A DNA stretch of 64,000 nt from the NCBI GenBank assembly GCA_963708175.1, contig CAVPSD010000006.1:640538-704537 (forward strand), written 5' to 3'. Made by a program: the position numbers and the translations under genes. The stretch is from an uncultured Acidimicrobiales bacterium (GTDB taxonomy: Bacteria > Actinomycetota > Acidimicrobiia > Acidimicrobiales > DATKAS01). Of this stretch, positions 1 through 51,004 are shown in pieces (the stretch's first letter is position 1; each line of letters opens with the position of its first letter). Below the pieces are notes generated by a model. The model worked only from the letters and a program-made list of their open reading frames with translations. It searched no databases and was not told where the DNA came from.

Positions 1-500
1 GCACTACCGCATTCGGGACTTTCCTGGACTCGAAGAGGTCTTTCAGGCGTCGCCACCAGGGCCCGCCCGCTCGTTCCCGCCTCTCCGTACTGCGGACACG
101 CACGGGCCCGCGTTGATGGCGATCGCGATGGTGGACATCTGCGGCTCCGGGCACACCATCCAACAGCTCGATGAACGCGAGGTGGTCGCGTTGAGTAAGC
201 AGTGGGTCACGTCGACGCGCCGCCTCGCTGAGGTGCATGGCGCGGCCGCTCTCAAGCTCTTGGGCGACGGATGTGTCGCTGCCTTCGAGGATCCCCTTGC
301 CTGCGTCGCGTTCGCCCAGGACTTCCGCGCATCTGCTGCCGCGGAAGGCTTCGAGATCAGGGCCGGGATCGACGTGGGCAGGGTCGAGCTCACCGACGGC
401 GAGATCATCGGGATGGCTGTGTACCGCGCCAGTGTGTTGGAGCGAGAGGCCGCACCCGGCCAGATCGCGTTGAGCCAGTTGGCGAGCGAGCTCGTCGGTG

Positions 501-2045
<1,545 letters not shown>

Positions 2046-2088
2046 GACGCGCCGAAAGTAGGGTCGTCGGCACACGACCGGGGGACCG

Positions 2089-3219
2089 ATGACAGACATC
2101 AAGGGCACGTGCGACCCGCGCTTCGAGAGCGTCAAGCAGGCGTTCGCGAGCAACTTCGACCAAGGGCTGGATGTCGGGGCGTCGGTGGCCGTCGTCCTCG
2201 AAGGTGAGCTCGTCGTCGACCTCTGGGGCGGCCATGCCGACGAGGCGAAGACCAAGCCGTGGGAGCGCGACACCATCATCAACGTCTGGTCCACGACCAA
2301 GACGATGACGGCGCTCTGTGCGCTGATGCTGGCCGACCGCGGTGAGCTCGACCTGCACGGCAAGGTTGCGACGTATTGGCCCGAGTTCGCGGCCAACGGC
2401 AAGGCGGACATCGAGGTGAGCCATCTGATGGCGCACTCGGCGGGTCTCTCGGGCTGGCAGGAGCCGATCGTGCCCGAAGATCTCTATGACTGGGAGAAGG
2501 CCACGTCGCTGCTTGCCGCGCAGGCTCCGCTCTGGGAGCCCGGCACCGCGTCCGGGTACCACGCGATCACGCAGGGCTACCTCGTCGGCGAGGTCGTGCG
2601 CCGCATCGCGGGCGAGTCAGTCGGCACGTTCTTCGCGAAGGAAGTCGCCGGGCCGCTCGGCGCGGACTTCCACATCGGCACACCGGCCGAGTGCGACGAC
2701 CGGATCGCGCTCGTGATCCCGCCGCCGCCGCTGCCGATCCCCGAGAACCCGAGCGAGATCATCCTCAAGACGTTCGCCAACCCGCCGATGGACGCCGCCC
2801 AGTCGTGGACTGTGCCCTGGCGCCGGGCGGAGATCCCGGCGGCCGGTGGCCATGGGAATGCTCGCTCGGTCGCGCTCGTGCAGTCGGCGCTGTCGTGCGG
2901 AGGCGAGGCGAACGGCGTGCGCCTCCTGTCCGCCAAGGGTTGTGAGGTCGCACTCGAGAAGCAGATCAGCGGCATCGACCTGGTGCTCGGGCTGCCGATC
3001 ACGTTCGGCATGAACTACGGGCTCAATTCCGCGGACCTGCCGATCAGCCCGAATCCCCGGGCCTGCTTCTGGGGAGGTTGGGGTGGCTCGATCATCGTGA
3101 ACGACCTCGACGCGCACATGTCCGTCGCCTATGTCATGAACCGGATGGGCGAAGGGACGATGGGCGACCCCCGTGGCCTCGGGATCGTCATGGGAGCGTT
3201 CGCCGGCCTCGCCTCCTGA
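2089..3219 (+). CDS. serine hydrolase, beta-lactamase/esterase (class C-like) family
   Basis: 376-aa ORF. S-x-x-K nucleophile motif STTK after WSTTK. The HLMAHSAGLSGW and YHAITQGYLVGE segments are typical of EstB/beta-lactamase-related esterases. Confidence 0.8.
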   Translation: MTDIKGTCDPRFESVKQAFASNFDQGLDVGASVAVVLEGELVVDLWGGHADEAKTKPWERDTIINVWSTTKTMTALCALMLADRGELDLHGKVATYWPEFAANGKADIEVSHLMAHSAGLSGWQEPIVPEDLYDWEKATSLLAAQAPLWEPGTASGYHAITQGYLVGEVVRRIAGESVGTFFAKEVAGPLGADFHIGTPAECDDRIALVIPPPPLPIPENPSEIILKTFANPPMDAAQSWTVPWRRAEIPAAGGHGNARSVALVQSALSCGGEANGVRLLSAKGCEVALEKQISGIDLVLGLPITFGMNYGLNSADLPISPNPRACFWGGWGGSIIVNDLDAHMSVAYVMNRMGEGTMGDPRGLGIVMGAFAGLAS

Positions 3220-3271
3220 CGTTTGCCGCGGCGCCATCTCGCGTTCACCTCGACCGATCAGACTCGGCGAG

Positions 3272-3628
3272 ATGACCGTGCGGGGTGTTTTCATCAACGC
3301 GAGGAAGACGAGGGAGGTCGCCGCCGGCGACACGATCTTCGTGCAGGGTGACGAGGGCGACTACATGTACGGCGTCGTCAGTGGTGAGGTCGAGCTGCGA
3401 GTCGGCGACCACACCGTCGAAAAGGCCGGCGAGGGCGACGTGTTCGGCGAGATGGCCCTGATCGACAAGTCGCCACGCGCGGCTACCGCGGTCGCGACCG
3501 CGGACACGGCTCTCGCGATGATCGATCAGCGCGAGTTCATGTTCCTCGTCCACGAGACGCCGATGTTCGCCCTCCAGGTGATGTCGTCACTCGCCGATCG
3601 CCTCCGCAAGCTCGACACCAACCTCTAG
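3272..3628 (+). CDS. cyclic nucleotide-binding domain protein (single domain, 118 aa)
   Basis: ORF 3173..3628 trimmed to ATG 3272 (MTVRGVF). cNMP-binding cassette GDVFGEMALID...RAATAVA (G-E...R-[ST]-A). Confidence 0.75.
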   Translation: MTVRGVFINARKTREVAAGDTIFVQGDEGDYMYGVVSGEVELRVGDHTVEKAGEGDVFGEMALIDKSPRAATAVATADTALAMIDQREFMFLVHETPMFALQVMSSLADRLRKLDTNL

Positions 3629-4008
3629 GAATGAGGCATCGCCCCGCCGGTGTGCGCGAACGTCTTGTTGACGATCTTCCACGCACCGTCGATGCGCGCC
3701 AGTGAGAAGTAGTCGACGAACGACACCTCTCCCCAGCAACCCTCCTCCGCAAGGGTCGCGACCGCGGCATCGCCCACCTGCTCGATCGAGGTGATCTCCG
3801 CCTTGTAGGTGCCCGCCACGTTCATCGGCGCCGAGGCCGCGATCTCGAAGAACTGCTGGATCGGCATGTCGAATCGGCTGCCCTCGACATGACCGAACAT
3901 CCGGGCGTCGTCGTGGAACGCCTCCTTGAGCTTGCCGGCGTCGCCGTCGGCGCTCCCGTCGACGTAGAGCTGGATCACCTGAGCGATCGCGTCACGATCC
4001 GCTGTCAT
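3625..4008 (-). CDS. NTF2-like / SnoaL-type small protein
   Basis: 127-aa ORF with ATGA overlap with the upstream PhyH gene (4005..4008). The IQLYVDG..FHDDARMFG..ARIDGAWKIVNKTF pattern fits the NTF2-like fold. No closer assignment. Confidence 0.6.
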   Translation of the reverse strand: MTADRDAIAQVIQLYVDGSADGDAGKLKEAFHDDARMFGHVEGSRFDMPIQQFFEIAASAPMNVAGTYKAEITSIEQVGDAAVATLAEEGCWGEVSFVDYFSLARIDGAWKIVNKTFAHTGGAMPHS

Positions 4009-4793
4009 GCCTGGACCTCCGTAGTGATGTAGCGACGGGGATGGCGGCCGTCAACGTAGCCGAGGAACGGCGGGTAGATGTTGTAGCCCAGAAGCTCCTG
4101 GAGGCGCTCGGGCAGGTCCGCTGCCACTGCCCTCGGCACGGCGAGCAGGTGCGTCTCCTGGGGACGGAGCCACGCGGCGACGTACTCGAGGATCACGCCG
4201 AGGCGCGGCGTAGAGGTGGTGTTGGCTCCCCCGCCGTGGAAGACCTTCCCGCCGTAGAAGATCACCGAACCCGCGGGCATCACGGCATCGACGACGGTGT
4301 CGCGGCGCTCGGGCGTGCGGTCCACCCATCGGTGGCTCCCAGGGACGATCCGCGTCGCGCCGTTCTCCACGGTGAAGTCGTCGAGCGCCCACATCGTGTT
4401 CAGGACGACATCCCGGAAGTCGCGCGGCAGGGGGTAGACGCTGGCGTCGTAGTGCAGGACCTGTGCGTTCTCGCCTGTACCGATCTGGATCCCGGTCGGC
4501 GCAGAGAGCTGGTAGTGGCCGAGCACACGATCGAGCACGCCGAGGAGCAATGGATTGATCGCGGCTTCGTCGAAGGCACGGGTCTTGGCGAAGAGCGCGT
4601 ACACCCGACGGGTGCTGAACCCTTCGAAGTCGTTGCGGCCGAAGGGCAGCTCGTCGACCACCTCCTTCAGCGACGCCTTGGCAGTCGCGACCTCATGGGA
4701 CGACAGCATCCCCTCGACGATGGCGTAACCATCCTCATCGAGAGCGCCGACCACGTCGTCGACGGTGACGGTGGACGCCTGGAAGCGGGTCAT
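4005..4793 (-). CDS. phytanoyl-CoA dioxygenase (PhyH) family Fe(II)/2-oxoglutarate oxygenase
   Basis: 262-aa ORF. Candidate facial triad H-x-D in VLHYDAS and distal His in KVFHGGGAN. ENGATRIVPGSH is characteristic of PhyH-family proteins. Confidence 0.8.
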   Translation of the reverse strand: MTRFQASTVTVDDVVGALDEDGYAIVEGMLSSHEVATAKASLKEVVDELPFGRNDFEGFSTRRVYALFAKTRAFDEAAINPLLLGVLDRVLGHYQLSAPTGIQIGTGENAQVLHYDASVYPLPRDFRDVVLNTMWALDDFTVENGATRIVPGSHRWVDRTPERRDTVVDAVMPAGSVIFYGGKVFHGGGANTTSTPRLGVILEYVAAWLRPQETHLLAVPRAVAADLPERLQELLGYNIYPPFLGYVDGRHPRRYITTEVQA

Positions 4794-4830
4794 CTCCCAT
4801 GCACCCTACGACCGCGGGTCAAGATGCGAC

Positions 4831-5799
4831 ATGGGCTGGGAGCAAGACGCCGAGGGTGTGCTCGTGGGTGGCCTCGAGCCGGTGGCCGAAATCCTGATCG
4901 TGGACTACGACCCGGGCTGGCCGGGACGGTTCGAGGACGAGCGCGCCCGCATCGACGCCGCCCTCGGCGACCACGCGTTGCGGGTCGAGCACATCGGCTC
5001 GACGTCCGTCCCGGGGCTCGCGGCCAAGCCGATCGTCGACATCCTCCTCGTCGTCGCGGACGTCGAGGATGATGCGGTGTTCGGCCCCGCGCTCGAGGCC
5101 GCCGGCTACGAGCTGCGGGTGCGCGAGCCCGATCACCGGATGTTCCGCACGCCGGCGCGAGATGTCCACGTGCACGTGTACGCGCAAGGGTCGCACGAGA
5201 TCGTCGACTACCTCGACTTGAGGGACTGGCTTAGAGAGGATGCCGAAGGCCGCGTCCGCTACACCTCGGTGAAGCGCTCGCTCGCCACGCAGTCGTGGCG
5301 CGACATGAACGAGTACGCCGACGCGAAGTCACCGGTCGTGAGCGACACGTTGAGGCGTGCCCGCGAGTGGCGGTGCAGCCGGCATCGCGCAGTGGTGCGC
5401 CGGCTCTTCGACGAGGTCTGGAACGGCCGGCAGCTCGGGCTCGTCGACGAGCTCTACGCGGCGGACGTCGTGTTCGACTACACGCCCTACGCACCCGTCG
5501 GGCACGGCCGCGAGACGATCCGCGAGTCGCTTCAGCGGGCATGGAGCGCGTTCCCCGACTATGACGAAGAGTTGCTGTCGCTGACCGCTGAGGGTTGGCG
5601 GGTCGCGATGCATCTGCGGATCACCGGCACCCAATCGGGTCAGTGGGGATCGTTGCCGCCGACGGGCAAGCGGCTCGAGTTCGAGGAGATGGCGGTGCTT
5701 CACTTCGACAGCGAGGGACGCGTCGCACATCAGCGGGGGATCGTCGACAACCTGAACGCGCTGCGTCAAGCGGGCGTCATCCCGACACCGCGGTCATGA
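4831..5799 (+). CDS. GrpB domain fused to SnoaL-like ester-cyclase domain
   Basis: ORF 4765..5799 trimmed to ATG 4831. The N-terminal half has GrpB signatures (YDPGWP, HIGSTSVPGLAAKPIVDI, HVHVY). The C-terminal half is SnoaL/ester-cyclase-like (RRLFDEVWNGR, YTPYAPVGHGRE, GIVDNLNALRQAG). Confidence 0.65.
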   Translation: MGWEQDAEGVLVGGLEPVAEILIVDYDPGWPGRFEDERARIDAALGDHALRVEHIGSTSVPGLAAKPIVDILLVVADVEDDAVFGPALEAAGYELRVREPDHRMFRTPARDVHVHVYAQGSHEIVDYLDLRDWLREDAEGRVRYTSVKRSLATQSWRDMNEYADAKSPVVSDTLRRAREWRCSRHRAVVRRLFDEVWNGRQLGLVDELYAADVVFDYTPYAPVGHGRETIRESLQRAWSAFPDYDEELLSLTAEGWRVAMHLRITGTQSGQWGSLPPTGKRLEFEEMAVLHFDSEGRVAHQRGIVDNLNALRQAGVIPTPRS

Positions 5800-6739
5800 A
5801 CCGGTCGAGCTCGTCGGGGATGTGGGGCCCCGCTGGCTGATAGGCGATCTCCGTCGCACCGGCGGCCTCGAGCGACGCGACGTGGTCGCGCCACTGGTCC
5901 GCCGAACGGGCGACGCCGAACATCGTCAACGTCTCCCCCGTGACGACGAGCCGGTCGCGCTCGTTCGCCTCGATCAGGTGGCCTTCGTGAAGCGCGAGGT
6001 GGCGTTCGTCCTCGGGGACGGCTTCGAGCGCGGCCACCCACTCGTCGCCCTTCGGCAGGGTGGCGGCGGCACCTCGGAGATGGAGAGCGTGGTAGATCAG
6101 CGCGGCTGCGTGGCCCGCGGCTTCCATGCACCGCTCGCTCCCTGGGTCCTCGTCGGGGTCGAGCACGGTCCCGAACGCAAGGATCGAGCATCTCTCGAAC
6201 CCATTGGTCGGCTGCGTCGCAAAGATCCCGTCGGCGAGATCACGGGCAACGGCTTCGCCCTTCGGGCCGCCGGTGCCGAGGATGATCGGGACCCGGATGG
6301 GCCGCGCCGCGCCAAACCCCGACGGGTGCAGCATTCGGATGCGCGCGCCCTCCCATGACGTCGTCTCGCCGGCAAGGAGCGCGATGACCACCTCCACGTA
6401 CTCACGCACATAGGACCACGGCAACGGCTTCTGCCCGAGCGTGAGGCGCCCGGTGAACCCGGATCCGAGTGCGAGGTTCACTCGGCCCGGTGCGATCTCG
6501 CAGAGGGTCCCGACAGCCGACGCCGTGACCATCGGATGACGCAGCGACGGGATGGCGACGCCCGGCCCGAGCTCGATCGTCGAAGTCCGCCGTGCGCACT
6601 CGGCGAGCGTCATCCACACGTCGGGATACAGCGCCGGCGAGTCGTAGAGCCACGCTCGGCGATAGCCGAGCTGTTCGGCCGCAGCCACGTGGTCGGGTGT
6701 AGCCATCGACGTTGCGAACGCGCACGAGATGTCGAGCAT
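5777..6739 (-). CDS. LLM-class (luciferase-like) flavin/F420-dependent oxidoreductase
   Basis: ORF 5777..6826 trimmed to ATG 6739 (MLDISCAF). There is a 1-nt TGATG overlap with the stop of the upstream gene. AEQLGYRRAWLYDSP and NLALGSGFTGR are typical of the LLM family. The cofactor is a family-level guess. Confidence 0.7.
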   Translation of the reverse strand: MLDISCAFATSMATPDHVAAAEQLGYRRAWLYDSPALYPDVWMTLAECARRTSTIELGPGVAIPSLRHPMVTASAVGTLCEIAPGRVNLALGSGFTGRLTLGQKPLPWSYVREYVEVVIALLAGETTSWEGARIRMLHPSGFGAARPIRVPIILGTGGPKGEAVARDLADGIFATQPTNGFERCSILAFGTVLDPDEDPGSERCMEAAGHAAALIYHALHLRGAAATLPKGDEWVAALEAVPEDERHLALHEGHLIEANERDRLVVTGETLTMFGVARSADQWRDHVASLEAAGATEIAYQPAGPHIPDELDRFMTAVSG

Positions 6740-7128
6740 CAGCGTGGCGATTCGAGCGCCGCGAGCATTGCGGGCGTGTCGATCGAGAAGTGCGCGGCGA
6801 CGGCCTTGCCCTCGCGGATCGTCCACCGGTGGACCTCGGGGATGTCGAACGGCGTGCCGTGGGCGACCGTCGTCCCCTTCGTGTGACCGACCTGGATCAC
6901 GTCGCCATCCGCCGTGAACATCTCATGGGTCGTGACCGCTGACTGGATCGCCCCGGTCAGCGCTCCGGCGAACGCGAGGAAGCCGGGATGCCCGACGTGG
7001 CGGCCGCCCCACGGCAGCCGATCGTCCTGGGTGATGACGCAGGACTCGTCGATGAGCTTGGCGAGCGTGTCCACGTCGCGGCCTGCCATGGCGGCGTAGA
7101 TCTGCTGCACGACTTCGATGTCCGACAT
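6739..7128 (-). CDS. SnoaL-like / NTF2-fold protein
   Basis: ORF 6739..7218 trimmed to ATG 7128 (MSDIEVVQQIYAAMAGRD). The N-terminal helix and C-terminal WTIREGKAVAAHFSID fit the SnoaL-like fold. Confidence 0.6.
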   Translation of the reverse strand: MSDIEVVQQIYAAMAGRDVDTLAKLIDESCVITQDDRLPWGGRHVGHPGFLAFAGALTGAIQSAVTTHEMFTADGDVIQVGHTKGTTVAHGTPFDIPEVHRWTIREGKAVAAHFSIDTPAMLAALESPR

Positions 7129-7153
7129 CGGAGCATCCTGACACCCGGGTGTG

Positions 7154-7167
7154 CGAACATATGTTCG
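7154..7167. promoter_or_regulatory. LexA/SOS box (GAAC-N4-GTTC palindrome) overlapping the dinB start codon
   Basis: CGAACATATGTTCG is a perfect 14-nt palindrome. Its core GAAC-N4-GTTC matches the Gram-positive/actinobacterial LexA operator. The central ATG (7161) is the dinB start. Confidence 0.6.
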
Positions 7168-8357
7168 TGCGGGCCGATGCCACGATCCTCCACGCCGATC
7201 TGGACTCGTTTTACGCATCAGTCGAGCAGCGCGACGACCCGTCGCTGAGGGGCAAGCCCGTCATCGTCGGCGGTGGCGTCGTGCTGGCCGCGAGCTACGA
7301 GGCCAAGGCCTTCGGGATCCACACGCCGATGGGCGGCCGGGAAGCGCGCCAGATGTGCCCGAACCTCATCGAGGTCTCACCCCGGTTCTCTGCGTACTCC
7401 GACGCGAGCAAAGCCGTGTTCGAGATCTTCAACGACACGACTCCCCTCGTCGAGGGGATCTCGATCGACGAAGCGTTTCTGGACGTGGGTGGGCTGCGCC
7501 GGGTGTCCGGCACGCCGACCCAGATCGCGATCCGGCTCCGCGACCGTGTGCAGGACGAGGTCGGCCTGCCGATCACCGTCGGTGTCGCCCGCACGAAGTT
7601 CTTGGCGAAGGTCGCGAGCCGCGTCGCCAAGCCCGATGGCTTGCTCGTCGTGCGGCCCGAGCGCGAGCTCGCGTTCCTGCATCCGCTGCCCGTCGAACGG
7701 CTGTGGGGCGTGGGCATCAAGACCGCCACCAAGCTGCACGACCGCGGCATCGACACGGTCGCCGACGTGGCACGCCTCGAGCAGTCAACGCTGATGTCGA
7801 TCCTCGGCCCTCACGCTGGTCGGCATCTCCACGCCCTCGCCCACAACTACGACCCCCGACCCGTCGAGGTCGGTCGGCGCCGGCGCTCGATCGGCTCGCA
7901 GCGAGCGATCGGGTGGCGCGCCAAGGCGCCCGGAGAGATCGAGGCGACCCTGGCGGGTCTGGTCGACAGGGTCACGCGCCGACTGCGCGTGGCCAATCGG
8001 GTCGGCCGCACAGTCGTGCTGCGCATGCGCTTCGAGGACTGGTCGCGCGCGACGCGCTCGCACACGATGGCGCGGCCGACCGCGCTCACCGAACCCATCC
8101 TCGAGACCGCGCGTGGCCTGCTCGCCGACGTGCAGCCCCTGATCGACGATCAGGGGCTCACGCTCATCGGCATCGCCGTGATGAACCTCGACGACGACGA
8201 TGCCGTGCAGCTGCCGCTCCCATTCGACCGCCGCACCGCGAGCCGCCTCGACGCCGCGCTCGACGAGGTGCGCGACAAGTTCGGGTCCGCCGCGGTGAGC
8301 CGAGCCGGACAGCTCGGCCACGACCCCGGGTTCGCGCCGCCCCTGCTGCCCGACTGA
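7161..8357 (+). CDS. dinB: DNA polymerase IV (Y-family translesion polymerase)
   Basis: MFVRADATILHADLDSFYASVEQRDDP, SIDEAFLDV and GVARTKFLAKVAS are Y-family hallmarks. An alternative GTG start lies at 7149. Confidence 0.85.
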   Translation: MFVRADATILHADLDSFYASVEQRDDPSLRGKPVIVGGGVVLAASYEAKAFGIHTPMGGREARQMCPNLIEVSPRFSAYSDASKAVFEIFNDTTPLVEGISIDEAFLDVGGLRRVSGTPTQIAIRLRDRVQDEVGLPITVGVARTKFLAKVASRVAKPDGLLVVRPERELAFLHPLPVERLWGVGIKTATKLHDRGIDTVADVARLEQSTLMSILGPHAGRHLHALAHNYDPRPVEVGRRRRSIGSQRAIGWRAKAPGEIEATLAGLVDRVTRRLRVANRVGRTVVLRMRFEDWSRATRSHTMARPTALTEPILETARGLLADVQPLIDDQGLTLIGIAVMNLDDDDAVQLPLPFDRRTASRLDAALDEVRDKFGSAAVSRAGQLGHDPGFAPPLLPD

Positions 8358-8382
8358 TCGGTGGCTGTGCCAGTGTCTCGGG

Positions 8383-9391
8383 ATGCGGGTCGGGACGGCG
8401 GTGGCGGTGCTGCTGTTTCTCGCGGCCTGCTCGGAGTCGTCCCTGTCGGCACCGACGACAGTGCCGGCGACGACGGCGGCCGTGACGACCAGGGCCACCC
8501 CAACGACCGCGGGCACCACGACGACGACCATCGCTGCGCCCGAGGTGGAGAGCGTCATCGACGTCGGCGGCACGCAGCTGCTCGGTCTCGCGGTGACGAG
8601 CGATGCCGTGTGGCCGGTGTCCTACGACGCAGGCACGATCAGCCGCGTCGATCCGACGACGAACGCGGTGACAACCGCATACGCCATCCCCGGCGCGGCA
8701 TCGGCGCTGAGCGTGGCCGATGCCGTGTGGGTAGCGAGCTACGGCGGGCCTCACTCCGTCGTCGCCATCGACGCCACGACGGGAGCCATGAAGGCAAGCG
8801 TCCAAGCGGGCGAGGTCTGCTGTGATCTCACGAGCGACGACGAGGGCGACGTGTGGGCGATCGATCCCGGCGGACGGGTGCTCGAGATCAGCGATGGCGG
8901 TGTGAGCAAAGGTCTGCCCGTCGACATCGACGCGGCGAAACGCGCACACCAACGTCGTTTACGCGGGCGGCAGCCTGTGGGTCTCGAGCGACACGACCGC
9001 GATGCATCGGATCGACCCGGTCTCCGGTGCGACCGTCGACGTGGACGTCGGCGGCGGCGTGCCGTTCGTCGTGCACGAGGGACTGGTCTGGGGCGCGTCA
9101 CCGACTGAGATCTGGGCCGTGGACCCGGCCTCGGGCCAGGTCGCGGAGCGCATCCCCATCGACGGCTCGACCGAGGTGCTCTCGTTGAACTTCGACGGCG
9201 ACGGCGACATCTGGGTCGGGATCCGGCGCGCGGGGAGAGTGGGCGCAGTGCTGCAGCTCGACCGGGCGAGCGGCACGGTGAAGACCGAGCTGCGCGATGT
9301 CGACATCCCGGCGCGCATCGAGTTCGGGTTCGGATCGATCTGGGTCACCGATTCGGGTGGCAGCTCGCTCTACCGCATCGCGCCAACGTGA
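8383..9391 (+). pseudogene. secreted lipoprotein with beta-propeller-like repeats, frameshifted (1 extra base near 8938)
   Basis: Lipobox LFLAACS and a Thr-rich linker, then repeats of the type VWVASYG / VWAIDPGG / LWVSSDT / IWAVDPASG / IWVTDSGG. Frame 1 (8383..) reads ..GLPVDIDAA. The sequence then continues in frame 2 as NAHTNVVYAGGSLWVSSDTTAMHRIDP.. (ORF 9002..9391). The junction is at an AAA run, 8938-8940. Confidence 0.6.
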
Positions 9392-9767
9392 TCTGCGAGG
9401 CTCACGCCGTGGATCTGAACCACATGAACCTGCGGGTCCGCGATGCCGTCGCTTGCCGCGACTTCTACGTCCAGCACTTCGGGTTCAGGCCGGCGTTCGA
9501 GGTCGACGACGGCTTCTTCGTCCGCAACGACGACGGCTTCCTCCTCGCGCTCGTGCCCGCCGATCCGCACACTGCGCTTCCCGAGGGCTTCCACATCGGG
9601 TTCAACGGCGCCGACGCGGACGAGGTGCTCGCCCGCCATCGCGAGCTGTCCACCGTGGGCGTGCAGACCACCGCGGTCGTCGGGACTTCCGCCCCGACGA
9701 GCAGTACGTGACCTTCCGCTGTTGGGACCCCGACGGCACCGAGATCGAGATCTTCTGGGAGCCCTGA
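9388..9767 (+). pseudogene. VOC/glyoxalase-family protein, frameshifted (1 base missing at GGG run 9682-9684)
   Basis: GTGA overlap with the upstream gene. VDLNHMNLRVRD..FYVQHFGF is VOC-like. The C-terminal DFRPDEQYVTFRCWDPDGTEIEIFWEP is in the -1 frame (tail of ORF 9297..9767). Confidence 0.6.
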
Positions 9768-9842
9768 GTGTGCCCGGCTTCCGACTCTCTGTCGCGAAGT
9801 GCGCCACTTCTGGCGCAGTTTGCGACACAGAGCCCGAGGGAC

Positions 9843-11244
9843 TCAGACAGAGGGGCGAGGGATCGGCCGGGTCGTCTCGTAGGCGCGAGCGGCACGCAGG
9901 ACGAGCGCGTCGGCGAACATCGGGCCGACGATCTGCATGCCGATCGGAAGGCCGTCAATGGTGAGACCGCATGGGATCGTGCACGCGGGTTGCTGGGTGA
10001 GGTTGAACGGATACGAGAACGGCGTCCAGCCGAGCATCGACTCGGGCGTCATGGGCGAGTGACCCGCGGGCCTCGCCTCGAACGCGGGCACGGCGACCGC
10101 CGGAGTGACGACGAGGTCGTAGCTCAGCATGAGCTGGCGCATCGTCGACCCGAGCTCGCCGCGCCGGAGCACGAGGCGTTGCACCTCGAGGTTGCTGAGC
10201 TCTGACCCGAGGCGAGCCTCGGCGGCGAAGTCGGGGTCGGTGACCTCCTGCTGCGCTGGGGTGAGCGTGTTCCACAACGTCCACGCTCCGGTGAACCACA
10301 AGCCGGTGGTGATCGGGAGCGGATCTTCGAACCCGGGATCCCGCTCCTCCACGCGCGCTCCCAGGGCCTCGAGCTGCTTGACGCCGGCGGCCACCGCGTC
10401 GGCGACCTCAGGATGCACCTTCGCATGGCCGAGCGTCGGCGAGTAGAGCACCCGGAGCCCGTCGATCCCGTCGTCGAGGCCATCGAGGTAGTCGGCCTCA
10501 TCGGGCGGCAGCGACGTCCAGTCGCGTGCGTCGGGCTGCTTGAGCACGTTCATCATCAGCGCCGCGTCGCGCACGCTCATGGTGTGCGGCCCGATGTGCG
10601 ACACCGTGCCGAACGGTGACAGCGGATGCGCGGGGACGCTGTCCGAAGCTCGGCTTCAGCCCGAAGTTTCCGCAGAACGCCGCAGGGATGCGCACCGACC
10701 CCGCGCCGTCACTGCCGATGCTCAGCGGCGCGAGGCCAGCGGCGACGGCGGCGGCAGTGCCACCGGACGAGCCGCCGCTTGTCTTGCTCGGGTCCCACGG
10801 ATTGCGCGTGATCCCCGTCATCGGCGAGTTGGTCTCGCCCTTGCAGCCGAACTCGGGAGTCGTGGTCTTGCCGACGAACACCGCGCCGGCCTCTCGCAGA
10901 CGCGCAACCGAGGGTGCATCGACATCCCAGGCCTGGTCGGGATCGACGGTGAAGCTTCCCCGTCGCGTGGGCCACCCGTGGGTCAGGAGCAGATCCTTGA
11001 TCGACGTGGGCACACCGTCGAGAGGACCCATCGGCTCGCCGCGCTGCCAACGCGCCTCACTCACACGAGCAGAAGCGAGCGCCGATTCCTCGTCGACGAG
11101 GCAGAACGCGTTGAGCGTCGGGTTGACGACCTCGATCCGCGCGAGCACGGCCCCGGTCACCTCGACCGGTGATGCCTGGCCCGTCCGGTAGAGATCGAGC
11201 AGCTCGGTTGCGCTGCGCTGGGTGAGATCAGAAGGGGTGCTCAC
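9843..11244 (-). pseudogene. amidase (amidase-signature family), frameshifted near 10640
   Basis: N-terminal part (ORF 10498..11394, GTG 11244) has GVPTSIKDLL, GGSSGGTAAAVAAG and GSDGAGSVRIPAAFCGNFGLKPSFG. The conserved continuation VPAHPLSPFGTVSHIGPHTMSVRDAAL is in another frame (ORF 9843..10604). Removing one base from ggaCAGcgt restores SFGRVP. Confidence 0.75.
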
Positions 11245-13043
11245 CAAAGGCGACGGCGCGACGCGAGGGCGAGGAGCCCGATGCCGCCGAGGACGCCCGC
11301 GATGCCGACCAGACCGAGCCCGGGCTGCGAGCCCGTGGCGGGCAGCGTCTCGCCGCCCGTCGTCGTGCTCGTCGTCGAGCCGCCGAGCTCGCACTGATCG
11401 GGCGCCGTGGTCGGCACGACCGTGGTGCCCGCCCCCGCAGCCGTCGTCGTCGTCACGATTGTCGTCGCCGTTGTCGTGGATGTGCCCGCGGTCGTCGACG
11501 TGGATGCCGTCGTCGACGTGGATGCCGTCGTCGACGTGGATGCCGTTGTCGACGTGGTGCTGCTCGTGGTCGTCGAGCTCGTGGTCGTCGAGCTCGTGGT
11601 CGTCGAGCTCGTGGTCGTCGTCGTGCTCTCAGTGCTCGACGTCGACGAACCGGAGGTCGTCGTGGTGGCGATCGTCGAGGACGGGCTCGTCGTGTTCACG
11701 ACGTTCACGAAGGTGACCGGCGGTGATGCCTGGAGCGGCTGCGGGCTCTCCGGTGGGCAGACGTCTGCCGCTTGCGTCGCCGAGAGCGCGCTGACTCCTC
11801 CAGGGCCCACCACATCGATCTTCTGGTTGTCGCCCGAGGACGACTCCTTCAGCTCGCATCGGGCTGGGACGGTGATCCCTGTGACCACGGTGCTCACTGC
11901 TCCGGTAGCGCCGGCAGGGATCACGAACGGCGGGATGGGCCCGTTCGGCTTGGAGCACACGATGTCGATCCGGATCTCACCTTGCTGCCCCGCGCCGTCA
12001 CCCTCGATCGACTTGACGACCGTCAAGTCCTGTGGACCGAAGAGCACCACTGTCTTGGTCACGTCGGTCACCGCGATGAGAGGGCCGGCCTGGATGATCG
12101 TCTGCGCGCCCAGGGTCGGTTGGTTCGTGGGCGGGATGAAGAGATAGACGGTGCCGCCGGGTTGCGACACCGTCGCCGTGACGGTGAGGGATATGGGTCC
12201 GGGCGAGTCGCCCTGCAACCAGACCTGTTGACCATCCGTGACCTCGAACGTGCTCCCGAGGCTCTGCGTGCCGTCTTCATCACCGAACGCATTCGCTCCC
12301 TCGCTGACGCGAGCGACCGCGGTCTGCCCGTTGGTGTGCACGACGAACGGCCCGACGACCGCGCTGACCCCGCCGGCCTTGGGCCCGTCGATCGTGACGT
12401 TCGGCGCCGGCGGAGCTGACAGTGGGCCGAGCTTGATGACGTTCGCGACGATCGCAGACACCGCGGAGTACAGCGGCGAAGTCGTCGACAAGACGTAGCC
12501 GTCGCTGAAGTACCAGATCGCGGCCTGCACCGCGGCGGCGCGTTGATTGGCGTCGAGGTTCGACGGCTCGTTCGTCGTCGGGAAGTACGACTGGAGCAAG
12601 CGAGCGACGTAGCCCACGTTCGGCACGTTCGCCTCGTTCCACTCTCCCGGCTTGTAGGGCCAGCCGACGTACGTCGGTGTGAGGAGGTCGATGCAGTAGC
12701 TGTCGAACTGGCTGCCCACGCCGGGACCCGAGGTCACCTCCATCCGAATCAGTCCCGCAAAGCCTTCGTCCTTCGCCGTCCATCCCTCCTGCGGGACGGT
12801 CGTCGGGTAGCCGACCAGTCGCGCTCCCTCCGTCAGCGTCGAGACATACCCCTGCACGCCTTGGCCAGCGCCCGTGTCGATGATCTTCACGGGCCCCGTC
12901 GTGAGTCCGCTGTCCTGTGGCGACGGGCTCGGCGGCGACGGCTGGACAGCGGCGTTCGCGAACGCGACCGAGGTCGCGAGGACCAACGTGGTCGCCACCC
13001 CCATCGCAGAGAGCACCGCGAGGAGTCTGCGGGGAGCGCGCAT
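11241..13043 (-). CDS. LPXTG-anchored surface protein with thioester (TQxA-type) adhesin domain and Thr/Ser-rich stalk
   Basis: Trimmed to ATG 13043. Signal peptide MRAPRRLLAVLSAMGVATTLVLATSVAFA. Cys in DSYCIDLL plus Gln in AAVQAAIWYF is a candidate Cys-Gln thioester pair. Ig-like middle region and T/S tandem-repeat stalk. C-terminal LPATG + hydrophobic helix + RRRLW. Confidence 0.75.
   Translation of the reverse strand: MRAPRRLLAVLSAMGVATTLVLATSVAFANAAVQPSPPSPSPQDSGLTTGPVKIIDTGAGQGVQGYVSTLTEGARLVGYPTTVPQEGWTAKDEGFAGLIRMEVTSGPGVGSQFDSYCIDLLTPTYVGWPYKPGEWNEANVPNVGYVARLLQSYFPTTNEPSNLDANQRAAAVQAAIWYFSDGYVLSTTSPLYSAVSAIVANVIKLGPLSAPPAPNVTIDGPKAGGVSAVVGPFVVHTNGQTAVARVSEGANAFGDEDGTQSLGSTFEVTDGQQVWLQGDSPGPISLTVTATVSQPGGTVYLFIPPTNQPTLGAQTIIQAGPLIAVTDVTKTVVLFGPQDLTVVKSIEGDGAGQQGEIRIDIVCSKPNGPIPPFVIPAGATGAVSTVVTGITVPARCELKESSSGDNQKIDVVGPGGVSALSATQAADVCPPESPQPLQASPPVTFVNVVNTTSPSSTIATTTTSGSSTSSTESTTTTTSSTTTSSTTTSSTTTSSTTSTTASTSTTASTSTTASTSTTAGTSTTTATTIVTTTTAAGAGTTVVPTTAPDQCELGGSTTSTTTGGETLPATGSQPGLGLVGIAGVLGGIGLLALASRRRLW
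11491..11622. repeat. in-frame tandem repeats inside the adhesin stalk (18-bp unit x ~4, then 15-bp unit x ~4)
   Basis: gtcgtcgacgtggatgcc at 11491, 11509 and 11527, with a degenerate copy at 11545. ctcgtggtcgtcgag at 11563, 11578 and 11593, with a partial copy at 11608. These encode TASTST / TTSST repeats on the minus strand. Confidence 0.85.
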
Positions 13044-13089
13044 CCGCGGAGTTTCCCACCAATCCGCTCGGGGCGCGAGACTGCGCACG

Positions 13090-14301
13090 ATGGCGTACAA
13101 CTCCACGGGCCGCGTCGTGCACGACGCGGACGCCCACATCATGGAGACGCCCGGCTGGCTCGTCGATCACGCCGATGCCGCGATCAGCGGTCGCATCGAG
13201 CCGCTGCGCTATTCGAGCGGCAACGAGCTGCGACAGACTGGCGATCCAGACGAGCAGCTTCGTGACCTCACGTCAGCGTTTGCCCGGCTCGCCGAGCGCC
13301 ACCGCTCGGACGAGTACCGGGCCAACGAAGCCGCCGAGATCATGAACCGAAAGAACTTCGCGGCGACGGGGTCGTTCCTTGCCGAGGATCGAGGCCGCGC
13401 GATCGACCTCCTCGGCTTCTCGAGCCAGCTCGTCTTCAACACGTTTCACAACCGGCGGCTTCGCGACTGGGAGCACTCTGGCGATCTCGAGCTCGCGCTC
13501 GGCGCGGCGCGCGCGCACAACCGCGGCATGGTCGACTTCTGCTCGGCGGATCGTCGCCTCTTGCCGACCTGCTACGTCCCCTTGTGCTCACTCGATGACG
13601 CCGCGTCGATGACGGACGAGGCGATCGCGATGGGCGCGGCAGCGTTGCTGATCGCGTCCAGTTGCCCACCGGGCCACTCGCCGAGCCACATCGGCCTCGA
13701 CGGCGTGTGGGCGCGCGCGCAGGAAGCCAGGATCCCGGTCGTCTTCCACGTCGGAGGTACGGGCGACCTGATCGACAAGAGCTACTTCAACAATGGGTTG
13801 CCCATCCCGCCCGACTTCCATGGCGGCGAGGAGAACTTCCGCTCGGTCGACTACATGGGCATCCCCCACCCGCCGATGCAGACCCTCGCCACGATGATCT
13901 TCGACGGCGTCCTCGAGCGGTTCCCCGGTCTGCGGATCGGTGTGATCGAGCAGGGCGCGATCTGGCTTCCGTCCTGGATGCGCCAGATGGAGGCCGCGTT
14001 CGACGCGTTCGCTCGGCACGAGGAGCGGCTGCGCGCGCTGTCGTTGCGCCCGAGCGAGTACGTGCGGCGCCAGGTGCGCGCCACGCCCTATCCGACGGAG
14101 GACGTCGGCTGGATCATCGAGGAGTCCGGCCCGGAGGTGTGCTTGTTCTCGAGCGACTACCCGCACGTCGAAGGCGGCCGTCGCCCGATCGAGCGTTTCG
14201 AAGCGTCCCTCGCTCACACCGACGAGGACGCCAAGAGGCGTTTCTACTGCGACAACTTCCTCGACCTCATGGGGAGCTCCGCGACAGCACTCGCTGCTTA
14301 G
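13090..14301 (+). CDS. amidohydrolase-2 (ACMSD-like metal-dependent hydrolase/decarboxylase) family protein
   Basis: ORF 12874..14301 trimmed to ATG 13090 (MAYNSTGRVVHDADAHIMET). The N-terminal D-A-H metal motif, VVFHVGG and SSDYPHVEG are typical of the Amidohydro_2 family. Confidence 0.7.
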   Translation: MAYNSTGRVVHDADAHIMETPGWLVDHADAAISGRIEPLRYSSGNELRQTGDPDEQLRDLTSAFARLAERHRSDEYRANEAAEIMNRKNFAATGSFLAEDRGRAIDLLGFSSQLVFNTFHNRRLRDWEHSGDLELALGAARAHNRGMVDFCSADRRLLPTCYVPLCSLDDAASMTDEAIAMGAAALLIASSCPPGHSPSHIGLDGVWARAQEARIPVVFHVGGTGDLIDKSYFNNGLPIPPDFHGGEENFRSVDYMGIPHPPMQTLATMIFDGVLERFPGLRIGVIEQGAIWLPSWMRQMEAAFDAFARHEERLRALSLRPSEYVRRQVRATPYPTEDVGWIIEESGPEVCLFSSDYPHVEGGRRPIERFEASLAHTDEDAKRRFYCDNFLDLMGSSATALAA

Positions 14302-29548: not shown

Positions 29549-29590
29549 CCGCGATCGAGTGACCGCGAACCCCACCTGTACCCTGGGCCG

Positions 29591-31126
29591 GTGCGACGGA
29601 CGGCGGTGCTCATCGGGCTCCTCGCCACCGCCACGATCGCCATCTCGTGCGGCTCGAACGCGACGCCCGCGGCCGCTCCCTCGACGAGCGACCCGACGAC
29701 TTCGGCGGCGGTCGCGACGTCGACGCCCGCGGATCCGTCGTTCCCCGCGGGCACACAGCACCTGCACTTCGAGTTCGGTCCGGTCGACGTGCAACCGGGA
29801 CAGAACTCGATCGAGTTCTCGAAGGGGCAGATCCCGAAGCCCGACGTCGACGGATGGATCTTGCGCATGGCAGCGAACCTCAGGCGCGAGGACGGCAGCG
29901 TCCCGCCCGTCGACGTCATCCACCTCCATCACGGCGTCTGGTTGAACGCGTCGCGGAAGGACAGCACCTTCCCGACGTTCCCCGAGCGGTTCTTCGCTGC
30001 CGGCGAGGAAAAGACGACCACGGAGTTCGCGCCTGGCTACGGCTACGCGTATCGCGCGACCGACCGCTGGGCGCTGAACTACATGCTCCACAACCTCACG
30101 CCGACCGGCGAGAAGATCTGGATCACCTACGACCTCGACTTCCTGCCGTCGTCCCAGGACGCCGCGGCCGCCATCATCGGAGCTCGACCGGTGTGGCTCG
30201 ACGTCGAGAACGGCAGCAGCTATCCGGTGTTCGACGTCATCCGCGGAACGGGCACGAACGGCACGTTCACCTATCCCGACGACGCGACCGACCCCTACGA
30301 CGGAGCGCCGCCGAAGAACGAGTGGACGGTCGACATCGAAGGCGTGCTCGTCGGCACCGGTGGCCACCTGCATCCCGGTGGGCTGCACGACGACCTCTGG
30401 CTCGACCGCGCCGGCCAGACCGCGCACCTCTTCAAGTCCGACGCGAGGTACTTCGAGCCCGCGGGGGCGGTGTCTTGGGACGTCGCGATGACGGTGACCA
30501 ACCCGACGTGGAATGTCACGGTGCACCCGGACGACGTGCTCCGCGTGTCGGCGACGTACGACTCGGCGCGGGCGTCGTGGTACGAGTCCATGGGGATCAT
30601 GGTCGTGTGGATGGCGAACGGGGCGAGCGGAGGCGCCGACCCGTTCGTGACGCCGGTCGACGAACCCGGTCACCTCACGCACGGCCACCTGCCCGAGAAC
30701 GACCACCACGGCGGCCAGAACGCGACACTTCCCGACGTGACCGCGCTGCCGACGAACCCCGCGACGGGGCCGATCCACATTTCCTCGTTCTTCTACGCCT
30801 CCGGTGACATGCGCACGGGCGGTGACTTGCCGAGCGTCAAGCATGGAGAGCCGCTCACGTTCATCAACGACGACTCGCCGGTCGGTCCGGGCATCTGGCA
30901 CTCGATCACCGCGTGCAAGGCGCCATGCAACCTCGAGACGGGGATCGCGTATCCGATCGCGGACGCGGACATCCCCTTCGACTCCGGCCAGCTCGGCACC
31001 CAAGGCGTTCCGACCACCGGCAGCATCGAGTGGTCGACGCCCACCGACCTCCCCGCGGGCACGTACACCTACTTCTGCCGGATCCACCCGCTCATGCGCG
31101 GCGGCTTCGTCGTGACGGAGGGCTAA
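29591..31126 (+). CDS. secreted copper lipoprotein: PHM/DBH-like two-copper monooxygenase-like region fused to amicyanin-like cupredoxin domain
   Basis: Lipobox IAISCGS. The His/Met pattern H113-H114 ... H167 ... H259-x-H261 ... M334/M337 parallels the CuH/CuM ligand order of peptidylglycine alpha-hydroxylating monooxygenase. C-terminal type-1 Cu ligands are H437 and C496-x2-H499-x2-M502 (YFCRIHPLM). The function is inferred only. Confidence 0.55.
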   Translation: MRRTAVLIGLLATATIAISCGSNATPAAAPSTSDPTTSAAVATSTPADPSFPAGTQHLHFEFGPVDVQPGQNSIEFSKGQIPKPDVDGWILRMAANLRREDGSVPPVDVIHLHHGVWLNASRKDSTFPTFPERFFAAGEEKTTTEFAPGYGYAYRATDRWALNYMLHNLTPTGEKIWITYDLDFLPSSQDAAAAIIGARPVWLDVENGSSYPVFDVIRGTGTNGTFTYPDDATDPYDGAPPKNEWTVDIEGVLVGTGGHLHPGGLHDDLWLDRAGQTAHLFKSDARYFEPAGAVSWDVAMTVTNPTWNVTVHPDDVLRVSATYDSARASWYESMGIMVVWMANGASGGADPFVTPVDEPGHLTHGHLPENDHHGGQNATLPDVTALPTNPATGPIHISSFFYASGDMRTGGDLPSVKHGEPLTFINDDSPVGPGIWHSITACKAPCNLETGIAYPIADADIPFDSGQLGTQGVPTTGSIEWSTPTDLPAGTYTYFCRIHPLMRGGFVVTEG

Positions 31127-39639: not shown

Positions 39640-39649
39640 CCGCGTCGTC

Positions 39650-48874: not shown

Positions 48875-49448
48875 CGCCGAGCAGCGACGCGGTGGCGCGG
48901 CGCGCCTGTCCGAGCGACGCCGCACGCCGGCTCGAGGTCAGCGCGACCTGCACGCCGAGGCCGTCGATCAACGCAGCGATCACCGCGGCCATCTCGGCTG
49001 CGTCGCCTTCACTGAACACACCGCTGTCCATGCCCTCCTGGACGACGGCTTCGAGGACGGCACGCCAGCGGTCGTCCAGCTGACGCCACGTACGCCGCAG
49101 CACGGGCGAGCGCAGCGCCTCCCCCCACGAGTCGATCCACATCGCCCACGACGCGCGTGTGCTCGGTCCGACGCCGGCGACGAGGAGCGCGTCGATGCGA
49201 TCGACGGGCGACGAGGGTGAGTCCGCGATCGCGTCGAGGTCGTCGAGCTCGTTTCGTGAGGCGAACGCGAACGCCTCGGCGAGCAGCGCGTCCTTGGACC
49301 CGAAGTGGTACACGACGAGCGGCGGCGAGATGCCCAGCCGGTGGGCGACGTCGCTCATGCGGGTGTTGGCGAAACCCCGCTCGCGCAGCACCTCACACGT
49401 GGCCCCGAGGATCTCCTCGCGCCGAGCCTCCCCCTTCGGCCGCGGCAT
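48849..49448 (-). CDS. TetR-family transcriptional regulator
   Basis: ORF trimmed to ATG 49448 ([49 protein letters not shown] is the TetR HTH). 1-nt TGATG overlap with the upstream accessory gene. Confidence 0.85.
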   Translation of the reverse strand: MPRPKGEARREEILGATCEVLRERGFANTRMSDVAHRLGISPPLVVYHFGSKDALLAEAFAFASRNELDDLDAIADSPSSPVDRIDALLVAGVGPSTRASWAMWIDSWGEALRSPVLRRTWRQLDDRWRAVLEAVVQEGMDSGVFSEGDAAEMAAVIAALIDGLGVQVALTSSRRAASLGQARRATASLLGVSAVPLRP

Positions 49449-50943: not shown

Positions 50944-51004
50944 ATTGGTCACCCTACGCGAGCCCGGTAGGCTGAACGACGGTTCAGGATCCGCCGGAGG
51001 TGAC

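Follow-up and report, generated by a model that had tools for sequence, protein, structure and literature searches.

In the 64-kb stretch of DNA analysed here (the window), an open frame of an Acidimicrobiales-like actinobacterium had been read, from the sequence alone, as coding for an LPXTG-type adhesin with a thioester domain (TED), and its presence in what looked like an environmental actinobacterium had raised the question of its target. The locus also raises the question of whether this protein belongs to a known TED family, and which of its residues would form the thioester bond. The open frame covers 11241..13142 on the reverse strand. The ATG at 13043, which yields a protein of 600 aa (ORF list), was preferred over the upstream ATG at 13142, as the N-termini of homologs align to the Met at 13043. 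The hydropathy of the N-terminus, MRAPRRLLAVLSAMGVATTLVLATSVAFA/NA, resembles that of a signal peptide, composed of MRAPRR, a hydrophobic core and AFA/ANA, in agreement with the signal peptide proposed before. A promoter and terminator scan of positions 9600-13500 gave nothing that exceeded shuffled expectation. The features of the locus, with the evidence used to place them, are as follows.

11241..13043, reverse strand: coding sequence of the TED surface protein, 600 aa (ORF list, homolog N-termini, 153 homologs)
12951..13043, reverse strand: signal peptide, residues 1 to ~29-31 (sequence reading and hydropathy)
12399..12893, reverse strand: TED head lobe, residues 51-215, β-barrel strands and a three-helix subdomain (Pfam PF08341, AF2 pLDDT 93, Foldseek)
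12687..12698, reverse strand: YCID, the [YFL]CΦζ motif, residues 116-119, with C117, the predicted thioester Cys, at 12693-12695 (conservation, PMC4450167)
12513..12530, reverse strand: VQAAIW, the TQxxΦW helix motif with Q173 and W177 (conservation, model, PMC4450167 and PMC6194298)
12138..12398, reverse strand: insert rich in β-strands, residues 216-302, following helix α3 and preceding strand P (AF2 model, Foldseek)
12036..12137, reverse strand: returning segment, residues 303-336, bearing AQTII (motif, homolog conservation)
12093..12107, reverse strand: AQTII, the ΦQζΦΦ motif, residues 313-317, with Q314 at 12102-12104 (conservation, motif)
11694..12035, reverse strand: DUF5979/CnaB-like stalk domain, residues 337-450 (custom HMM, residue conservation, PMC12617251)
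11421..11693, reverse strand: Thr/Ser-rich low-complexity region, residues 451-541 (composition; counterpart in 7/7 closest relatives)
11491..11557, no strand assigned: 18-bp tandem repeat, 3.7 copies, encoding (TSTTAS)n (TRF score 127, 97% match)
11562..11620, no strand assigned: 15-bp tandem repeat, 3.9 copies, encoding (SSTTT)n (TRF score 118, 100% match)
11379..11420, reverse strand: conserved VVPTTAPDQCELGG segment after the repeats, with C551 (both Cys motifs in 8/8 clade members)
11244..11345, reverse strand: cell-wall sorting signal, consisting of LPATG (11331-11345), a hydrophobic segment and RRRLW (sequence; the only such signal in the window)
11241..11244, reverse strand: GTGA, in which the adhesin TGA (11241-11243) overlaps the amidase GTG (11242-11244) (sequence)
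9843..11244, reverse strand: amidase-signature gene in two frames, outside the adhesin system (Pfam Amidase, tblastn, DNA)

An ordinary member of a widespread family

With the Pfam TED model (PF08341) the protein scored 39.2 bits (cutoff 22; E = 9.7e-10), whereas the NCBIfam model TQXA_dom remained below its cutoff (27.5 versus 30.4). We found 153 homologs, nearly all of which combine a TED with DUF5979, and several of these carry names such as 'thioester domain-containing' or 'Cys-Gln thioester bond-forming surface protein'; the TED and DUF5979 family has thus already been named by annotation pipelines. Together with the match of the structural model to solved TEDs described below, this bears out the reading of the gene as coding for a thioester-domain LPXTG-type surface protein. 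The nearest relatives are soil Acidimicrobiales MAGs with 50-55% identity, the best one at 55%. Searches of the PDB at the sequence level, with the single protein and with two family profiles, returned no TED and no match, and among JGI metagenome contigs, screened for close relatives, a single distant match with 29% identity was obtained. The family is common in the genomes of Arthrobacter, Streptomyces, Solirubrobacterales and Acidimicrobiales, and a TED in an environmental actinobacterium is no surprise. The adhesin is an ordinary member of a known and widespread Gram-positive TED family that is abundant in Actinomycetota.

Fold of the thioester domain and the predicted bond-forming glutamine

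The AF2 model of the protein, covering residues 31-455, reached a pLDDT of 88, and a separate model of the head lobe a pLDDT of 93; the latter spanned residues 45-218, thus excludes Q314, and bears on the fold alone. When the full model was compared with the PDB using Foldseek, the Class II TED of SaTIE (6fx6) was found with a probability of 1.00, 5a0g with 0.99 and Cpa with 0.96. For the head-lobe model, the best 24 PDB matches were all TEDs, with probabilities of up to 0.96 and TM-scores of 0.41-0.48, and no other fold gave a credible match. The TM-scores were modest overall (0.40-0.48, with E-values of about 1e-2 to 3e-4). What sets Class II TEDs apart is an inserted β-sandwich of ~75 residues, which separates α3 from strand P (PMC6194298), and the Cys-to-Gln spacing of solved members is 171 and 204 residues, compared to 129-153 in Class I (PMC4450167, PMC6194298). 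In our model, eight strands over residues 217-294 (~78 residues) lie between α3 and GGTVYLF/AQTII. Judged by this β-strand insert and by a spacing of 197 residues from C117 to Q314 (182-209 among homologs), the modelled domain fits a Class II TED. The Ig-like domains mentioned in the sequence-only reading can accordingly be named more precisely as this Class II-type β-sandwich insert and the CnaB-like DUF5979 domain that follows it.

The thioester had originally been placed between the Cys of DSYCIDLL, which begins at residue 114, and the Gln of AAVQAAIWYF, which begins at residue 170. Both motifs are indeed present, and in the AF2 model the YCID Cys is located at a strand end, VQAAIW in a long helix, and AQTII next to a strand, so that all three segments match published TED motifs together with their secondary-structure contexts. 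C117 was kept in all 110 homologs covering this position, and Q173 as well as W177 in 115 of 115. The Val of VQAAIW was regarded as a variant of the canonical Thr, but it is the clade consensus (111/115). A second invariant glutamine, Q314, was kept in 109/109 homologs covering the position, in a family motif that reads AQ[KRT][LI][IV].

The choice between the two glutamines is decided by what is known from other TEDs. The invariance of Q173 would favour it as the partner of C117, and the name of the NCBI model, 'TQXA domain', invites this pairing. However, the bond-forming Gln resides in a separate ΦQζΦΦ β-strand motif and not in the TQxxΦW helix (Walden 2015, Miller 2018; PMC4450167, PMC6194298). 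In all solved TEDs it is found on β-strand Q, 129-204 residues past the Cys (PMC4450167, PMC6194298), whereas Q173 is only 56 residues away from C117 and located in a long helix of our model. Moreover, the helix Gln and Trp merely hydrogen-bond the Cys backbone, and their mutation leaves the bond intact (PMC4450167, PMC6194298); within the TQxxΦW motif no residue is universally conserved (PMC4450167). Q314, on the other hand, holds both the expected position and the expected motif. Because published TEDs form their bond via the ΦQζΦΦ Gln, Q173 was rejected as the partner, and a thioester between C117 and Q173 is extremely improbable. Based on motif, spacing, conservation and topology, the predicted thioester pair is most likely C117 and Q314. 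This matters in practice, as C-to-A and Q-to-A mutants or mass spectrometry planned on the earlier pairing would target the wrong Gln.

Stalk, predicted cell-wall anchoring and the amidase junction

The domain following the TED was matched by a custom HMM, for which the first DUF5979 copy of each of 26 homologs was used; the match spans residues 339-415 with E = 1.3e-23, but only 76 of the 111 model positions. The final third of the domain has diverged, and Pfam PF19407 (DUF5979) gave no match to the adhesin at E <= 1. DUF5979 has been classed as CnaB-like with a Lys/Glu/Asn triad, mapped onto the CnaB-like domain of Cpa (PMC12617251). K344 is present in 101/108 homologs and E400 in 102/105, and N447 lies within a clade-conserved F-x-N-x-V motif (7/7), whose last strand was modelled at a pLDDT of about 55. 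K344, E400 and N447 thus form a probable, putative isopeptide triad, as judged from residue conservation. Q424 lies in 'SATQAA', placed by MAFFT beneath the canonical TNTY/TDTY; it was considered as the partner for an unusual Lys-Gln isopeptide and rejected in favour of N447, because F-x-N-x-V is conserved after an inserted Cys/Pro-rich loop and the strand count matches. The domain also holds a conserved cysteine pair, C363/C396.

Between this domain and the sorting signal, the 90 residues from 451 to 540 include 47 Thr and 25 Ser. The tandem repeats that encode part of this region had been described as perfect, which holds for the 15-bp unit; the 18-bp unit is present as well, with a slightly imperfect match (97%). 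The Thr-rich region is conserved in the clade, yet changes fast. It is flanked by two clade-specific cysteines. C429 (codon at 11757-11759) belongs to a DUF5979 loop, whereas C551, its candidate partner, is located in the conserved VVPTTAPDQCEL segment just ahead of LPATG, and the motifs of both occur in 8/8 clade members. It is conceivable, but rather unlikely, that a C429-C551 disulfide closes the probably O-glycosylated repeats into a loop of ~120 residues, instead of a simple linear stalk. If so, repeat copy number would alter a glycan 'brush' and not the reach of the thioester head, which would be a novel construction for the portion of a TIE (thioester, isopeptide, ester domain) adhesin that lies closest to the wall.

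The C-terminus reads as LPATG, the hydrophobic stretch SQPGLGLVGIAGVLGGIGLLALAS and RRRLW, exactly as reported earlier, and LPATG is found in 8/8 clade members; the score with Pfam Gram_pos_anchor was below threshold (16.2 bits versus a cutoff of 20). Neither a motif scan nor tblastn with the sortase of a relative (best E = 1.2) revealed a sortase in the 64-kb window, in line with the previous statement that it holds none. In 5/5 of the closest genomes, a class E sortase gene is located ~9.6 kb upstream of the orthologous gene. Class E sortases are associated with LAxTG rather than LPxTG signals.

The sub-threshold scores with several curated models and the lack of a sortase in the window would also agree with a TED-related domain whose binding is non-covalent, or which has lost the capacity for thioester formation, in a protein attached to the cell by nothing but its C-terminal membrane segment. 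We consider this quite improbable: the bond residues and the helper Gln and Trp are strictly kept at only 30-60% identity, suggesting that the chemistry has been retained, and LPATG in every clade member, with class E sortase in the genomes of relatives, argues against retention by the membrane segment alone. A different reading is that the protein is a pilus tip adhesin like Streptococcus pyogenes Cpa, polymerised by a pilus-specific sortase and not displayed as a monomer. Cpa likewise pairs a TED with a DUF5979-type CnaB domain (PMC12617251), and Cpa structures were among the Foldseek matches. However, the 64-kb window holds no second LPXTG-type ORF, pilin or sortase, the neighbourhoods in relatives lack pilin and class C sortase genes, and the sole linked sortase in these relatives is of class E, the housekeeping type, which makes a pilus tip adhesin very unlikely. 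We think it quite likely that the gene product is a secreted, sortase-type cell-wall-anchored protein of the TIE family.

The overlap of the adhesin stop codon with the amidase start had been noted as possibly coincidental, and this caution was justified. The overlap is real, and the amidase N-terminus read from the GTG at 11242-11244 aligns with that of an intact homolog (L080). The amidase gene itself is broken into two frames by one inserted nucleotide near 10638-10641; residues 1-185 and 187-445 of the Pfam Amidase model match two separate ORFs, and tblastn placed the two parts in frames -2 and -3. In relatives, the amidase gene lies ~8.5 kb away on the opposite strand with a catalase gene ahead of it, and a functional adhesin-amidase operon was for that reason rejected. 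Since the overlap is not conserved and the amidase is frameshifted, a functional link between the two genes is unlikely; the junction with this frameshifted gene is specific to the lineage.

Proposed architecture and comparison with known systems

Read from its N-terminus, the wall-anchored TIE-family protein would begin with a Sec signal peptide and a short linker rich in Pro, continue with a Class II-like TED and one CnaB-like DUF5979 domain, and end with a repeat-encoded Thr/Ser spacer and the LPATG signal. Three parts would make up its TED, namely the head lobe of residues 51-215, the β-sandwich insert of residues 216-302, and residues 303-336, which return as the P/Q segment. By analogy with the family, C117 of YCID and Q314 of AQTII would form an internal thioester after folding, with loss of ammonia, while Q173 and W177 of the VQAAIW helix would hydrogen-bond the Cys backbone beside the bond. 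A target nucleophile, for example a primary amine, may then attack the thioester, by which the target would become covalently joined to Q314. In the DUF5979 domain, a K344-N447 isopeptide, with E400 as catalyst, and a C363-C396 disulfide probably add stability, and the Thr/Ser region, probably O-glycosylated, would keep the head at a distance from the wall. Cleavage between the T and G of LPATG and linkage of the adhesin to peptidoglycan would be the task of a housekeeping sortase, whose gene is expected in another part of the genome. With this gene, the TED/TIE adhesins gain a member of the Acidimicrobiales type, which matters little past a correct annotation, namely Q314 as the predicted partner, the Class II type, and the lineage-specific nature of the amidase junction. 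It also illustrates that putatively covalent adhesins are common in soil actinobacteria, and their targets are a question for the family as a whole and not specific to this locus.

With the Class II TEDs of BaTIE, SaTIE (6fx6) and EfmTIE86 the adhesin shares the [YFL]CΦζ, TQxxΦW-type and ΦQζΦΦ motifs, a similar Cys-to-Gln spacing (197 versus 171-204), and a β-strand insert of ~75-78 residues between α3 and the Gln-bearing strand pair (PMC6194298). Also shared with the Class II TIE proteins is the domain order, with the TED at the N-terminus, a CnaB-type domain behind it, and an LPATG signal (PMC6194298). The best Foldseek probability was obtained with 6fx6, yet sequence similarity to any solved TED is undetectable. 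Compared to these TIE proteins, the adhesin carries a Val instead of Thr in the helix motif, has a single isopeptide-type domain, with the remainder of the spacer being Thr/Ser low-complexity sequence, and comes from an Acidimicrobiales-like actinobacterium and not from a Firmicute.

The N-terminal 415 residues resemble those of the actinobacterial TED/DUF5979 family of Arthrobacter, Streptomyces, Nocardioides and Solirubrobacterales, with the same invariant residues at 30-45% identity. Most members of this family contain 2-4 tandem DUF5979 domains and no Thr-rich region, whereas the Acidimicrobiales subclade has one DUF5979 domain with a remodelled C-terminal third, the extra Cys pair C429/C551, and the repeat-encoded Thr-rich segment. 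Finally, S. pyogenes Cpa (Spy0125; 2xic/4bug), which is also a structural match of the adhesin model, likewise has, C-terminal to a TED, a CnaB domain of the DUF5979 type, which bears a Lys/Glu/Asn isopeptide triad, putative in our protein (PMC12617251). In contrast, the TED of Cpa belongs to Class I and is nested within a two-TED protein of the pilus tip; a pilus sortase carries out the assembly, and the target is host tissue.

A thioester-domain surface protein and its predicted bond

The ORF list confirmed a minus-strand open reading frame at 11241..13142, and its ATG at 13043, with which the starts of the closest homologs align, gives a product of 600 amino acids, to which all residue numbers below refer. 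The N-terminus (MRAPRR, a hydrophobic core and AFA/ANA) looks like a Sec signal peptide. All motifs quoted in the sequence-only reading were found in this frame: DSYCIDLL from residue 114 (Cys = C117), AAVQAAIWYF from residue 170 (Gln = Q173), LPATG and RRRLW. On the plus strand, an Amidohydro_2 gene is divergent from the adhesin gene: its ATG (13090) is only 46 bp away from the adhesin start codon (13043, minus strand), and a consensus scan covering both starts found no sigma-70-like promoter.

The identification as a thioester-domain LPXTG surface protein held. In the HMM search proposed earlier, Pfam PF08341 (thioester domain, TED) matched residues 116-203 with 39.2 bits against a gathering score of 22, and NCBIfam TQXA_dom scored 27.5, below its cutoff of 30.4. 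Residues 1-451 retrieved 153 homologs from a large protein collection, nearly all with precomputed TED and DUF5979 (PF19407) annotations, from sources including Arthrobacter, Streptomyces, Nocardioides, Actinocorallia, Baekduia and Solirubrobacteraceae, where they are named 'thioester domain-containing protein', 'Cys-Gln thioester bond-forming surface protein', 'TQXA domain-containing protein' or 'DUF5979 domain-containing protein'. In GTDB contigs (one genome per species), a search with no more than two conserved peptide patterns yielded 218 relatives, the best five of which are Acidimicrobiales MAGs (50-55% identity). A preprint describes TEDs as common throughout Firmicutes and Actinobacteria (bioRxiv 10.64898/2026.02.05.703941), and the adhesin is a further member of this known, widely annotated family; the useful outcomes are a corrected bond partner, assignment to Class II and a demoted link to the amidase.

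In TEDs, the bond-forming residues lie in [YFL]CΦζ and weak ΦQζΦΦ motifs, both in the context of β-strands (C and Q); TQxxΦW stands apart as an α-helical motif whose Gln and Trp hydrogen-bond the Cys backbone and are non-essential for bond formation (Walden et al. 2015, PMC4450167; Miller et al. 2018, PMC6194298). The earlier pairing of C117 with Q173 was checked for homologs lacking either residue; in the family alignments C117 is kept in 110/110 sequences covering it and Q173 in 115/115, as is W177 (115/115). The pairing itself was abandoned, since according to these papers the Gln of the helical motif is no bond partner, and instead a second Gln, Q314, is invariant (109/109 covering sequences) in the motif AQ[KRT][LI][IV] (AQTII in the window protein), which fits ΦQζΦΦ. 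In an AlphaFold2 model of residues 31-455 (pLDDT 88.2, pTM 0.76), C117 closes a β-strand, Q173 lies within a 17-residue helix and Q314 directly precedes a β-strand. From motif, conservation and topology, we infer that the thioester would join C117 to Q314. The 'V-for-T variant' of the TQxA motif was correctly read as Val at position 172, but it is no oddity: Val occurs in 111 of 115 sequences and Thr in 4, thus Val is the clade norm.

The amidase junction

The adhesin stop codon TGA (11241-11243) does overlap a GTG (11242-11244) as GTGA, and an intact amidase homolog aligns starting five codons past this GTG, therefore the proposed amidase start is reasonable. In the relatives, the TED gene (plus strand) is followed by a block of ~10 kb running from aldehyde dehydrogenase through β-lactamase-family and DinB-family, DUF6923 and glyoxalase-family genes to the amidase, which is on the opposite strand; in the only locus showing the upstream neighbour of the amidase (L080), a catalase gene precedes it. 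In the window, this block lies at about 500-11230, inverted relative to the adhesin gene, which adjoins the amidase start, and the relatives' upstream genes, from sortase through MFS transporter, are absent. The adhesin is thus at a synteny breakpoint (window about 500-13043 compared with L001-L005, the five closest Acidimicrobiales genomes, and L080 and L081), and because of this different layout and the missing genes, the overlap is a lineage-specific junction and not a conserved adhesin-amidase operon, in agreement with the earlier caution that it may be coincidental. Block proteins are mostly ~75-92% identical to those of the relatives, and the adhesin only 52-59% (head lobe 59-70%, β-sandwich 41-52%, repeat region 40-48%); such divergence is typical of fast-evolving surface proteins.

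The amidase gene (9843..11244, minus strand) is split by one extra base near 10638-10641 ('cagc' versus a single Arg codon in homologs), which lies outside a homopolymer run and may mark a true pseudogene instead of an error in sequencing. Elsewhere in the window, 48852-51126 (minus strand) encodes a nitrile hydratase β subunit (Pfam), with an adjoining ORF in which the metal-binding motif of the α subunit, VCTLCSC, occurs (about 49969), and a TetR regulator beside these genes; together with the amidase they suggest nitrile/amide catabolism, though 39 kb apart. A 525-amino-acid ORF at 29549-31123 (plus strand) has coding-like GC3 and no Pfam match at E <= 1e-4, with a C-terminus (YFCRIHPLMRGGF) that looks like the copper site of a cupredoxin.

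Repeat region, cell-wall anchor and sortase

Features of the repeat region, and sortase genes of relatives
11491-11557, 18-bp tandem repeat, 3.7 copies, 97% match (Tandem Repeats Finder)
11562-11620, 15-bp tandem repeat, 3.9 copies, 100% match (Tandem Repeats Finder)
11757-11759, minus strand, C429 in '..TQ..VCP', 8/8 clade members
11391-11393, minus strand, C551 in 'VVPTTAPDQCEL', 8/8 clade members
L003:3-1202 and the first 100-400 nt of L001, L002, L004 and L005, class E sortase upstream of the adhesin ortholog
L011:9282-9596 (Dormibacteraeota MAG), class E sortase directly upstream of the adhesin ortholog

Residues 451-540 contain 47 Thr and 25 Ser per 90, and the proposed Thr/Ser stalk is indeed encoded by 18-bp and 15-bp tandem units, of which only the 15-bp one is perfect, as both had been called. 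All seven closest relatives have a Thr-rich region in the same place, where both the tandem unit (12 to 48 bp) and the number of copies differ, thus the region is conserved as a feature while its sequence turns over quickly. It is flanked on both sides by C429 and C551, a pair specific to the Acidimicrobiales subclade of the adhesin and its sole feature that we could not place in known descriptions; if a C429-C551 disulfide formed, the 'stalk' would become a closed loop. The window also encodes a PMT_2/YkcB-like membrane glycosyltransferase (39623-41695, plus strand, Pfam E = 5e-27), a type of enzyme that could O-glycosylate secreted Thr/Ser-rich proteins, although any connection with the adhesin is speculative.

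The C-terminal anchor is present as described: LPATG from residue 567, kept in 8/8 clade members, leads into a hydrophobic stretch of 24 residues and then RRRLW, and no other ORF in the window has a sorting-signal-like C-terminus. The reported lack of a sortase in the 64-kb window was borne out by a TLxTC-type motif scan (none in a plausible ORF) and by tblastn with a relative's sortase (best E = 1.2). In 5/5 closest Acidimicrobiales genomes, a sortase gene (Pfam Sortase E = 3.4e-33; class E sortase 161.9 bits versus cutoff 160) lies on the same strand as the orthologous adhesin gene and ~9.6 kb upstream of it, seen in 4/5 loci only as its 3' end within the fetched flank; the window lacks a counterpart of this region. 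Of note, the adhesin genes of L003, L004, L005, L080 and L081 shift frame part-way (around 11200-11400), which explains the odd His/Asp/Arg-rich C-termini of the database homologs P0001, P0002 and P0004. Beyond the shift, the new frame runs intact through the Cys motifs and the Thr-rich region, then LPATG and the hydrophobic segment, to the stop codon, and the shifts are probably long-read assembly errors.

Proposed mechanism and comparison with known systems

The adhesin would be exported by Sec, C117 and Q314 would form the thioester spontaneously, and a nucleophile on the target would attack it and become covalently joined to Q314. The CnaB-like domain and the Thr/Ser spacer would hold the head away from the wall, where a housekeeping sortase would link LPAT to peptidoglycan. 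The SfbI TED targets fibrinogen Aα Lys100 (PMC4450167), and a Class II TED adhesin is reported to be needed if conjugation in B. subtilis is to be efficient (PMC8092201), which makes a bacterial cell surface as plausible a target as a host.

The Foldseek match of highest probability to the full model was 6fx6, the Class II SaTIE TED (1.00), with CpTIE (0.99), a cross-linked Mobiluncus adhesin (0.98) and Cpa (0.96) among the others. A model of the head lobe only (residues 45-218, pLDDT 93.1) had TEDs as its top 24 matches, with modest structural scores (probability <=0.96, TM 0.41-0.48, E ~1e-2), and sequence searches of the PDB, family profiles included, detected no chain. The Cys-to-Gln spacing of 197 residues (family range 182-209) is in line with that of solved Class II TEDs (SaTIE 171, EfmTIE86 204; PMC6194298), compared with 129-153 in Class I (CpTIE, Cpa, SfbI, PnTIE; PMC4450167). 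The defining element of Class II is a β-sandwich of seven strands and ~75 residues, inserted between α3 and strand P, which delivers the Gln on a P/Q hairpin (PMC6194298). Our model places eight strands (residues 217-294) after the last helix and ahead of the conserved GGTVYLF...AQTII segment. Given this placement and the 6fx6 match, the first of the 'Ig-like domains' proposed earlier is best read from the model as part of the TED, its Class II insert, and not as a separate domain.

Pfam PF19407 (DUF5979) did not match the adhesin, and a custom HMM for the first DUF5979 domain, made with 26 homologs, matched residues 339-415 (E = 1.3e-23, only the first 76 of 111 model positions aligned). C363 and C396 are kept family-wide and probably form a disulfide. 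DUF5979 is CnaB-like and was mapped to the bottom domain of Cpa (survey PMC12617251); where that domain has the isopeptide triad Lys610/Glu680/Asn715, the adhesin has the candidate triad K344 (101/108 homologs), E400 (102/105) and N447, the last in an F-x-N-x-V motif in 7/7 readable clade members.
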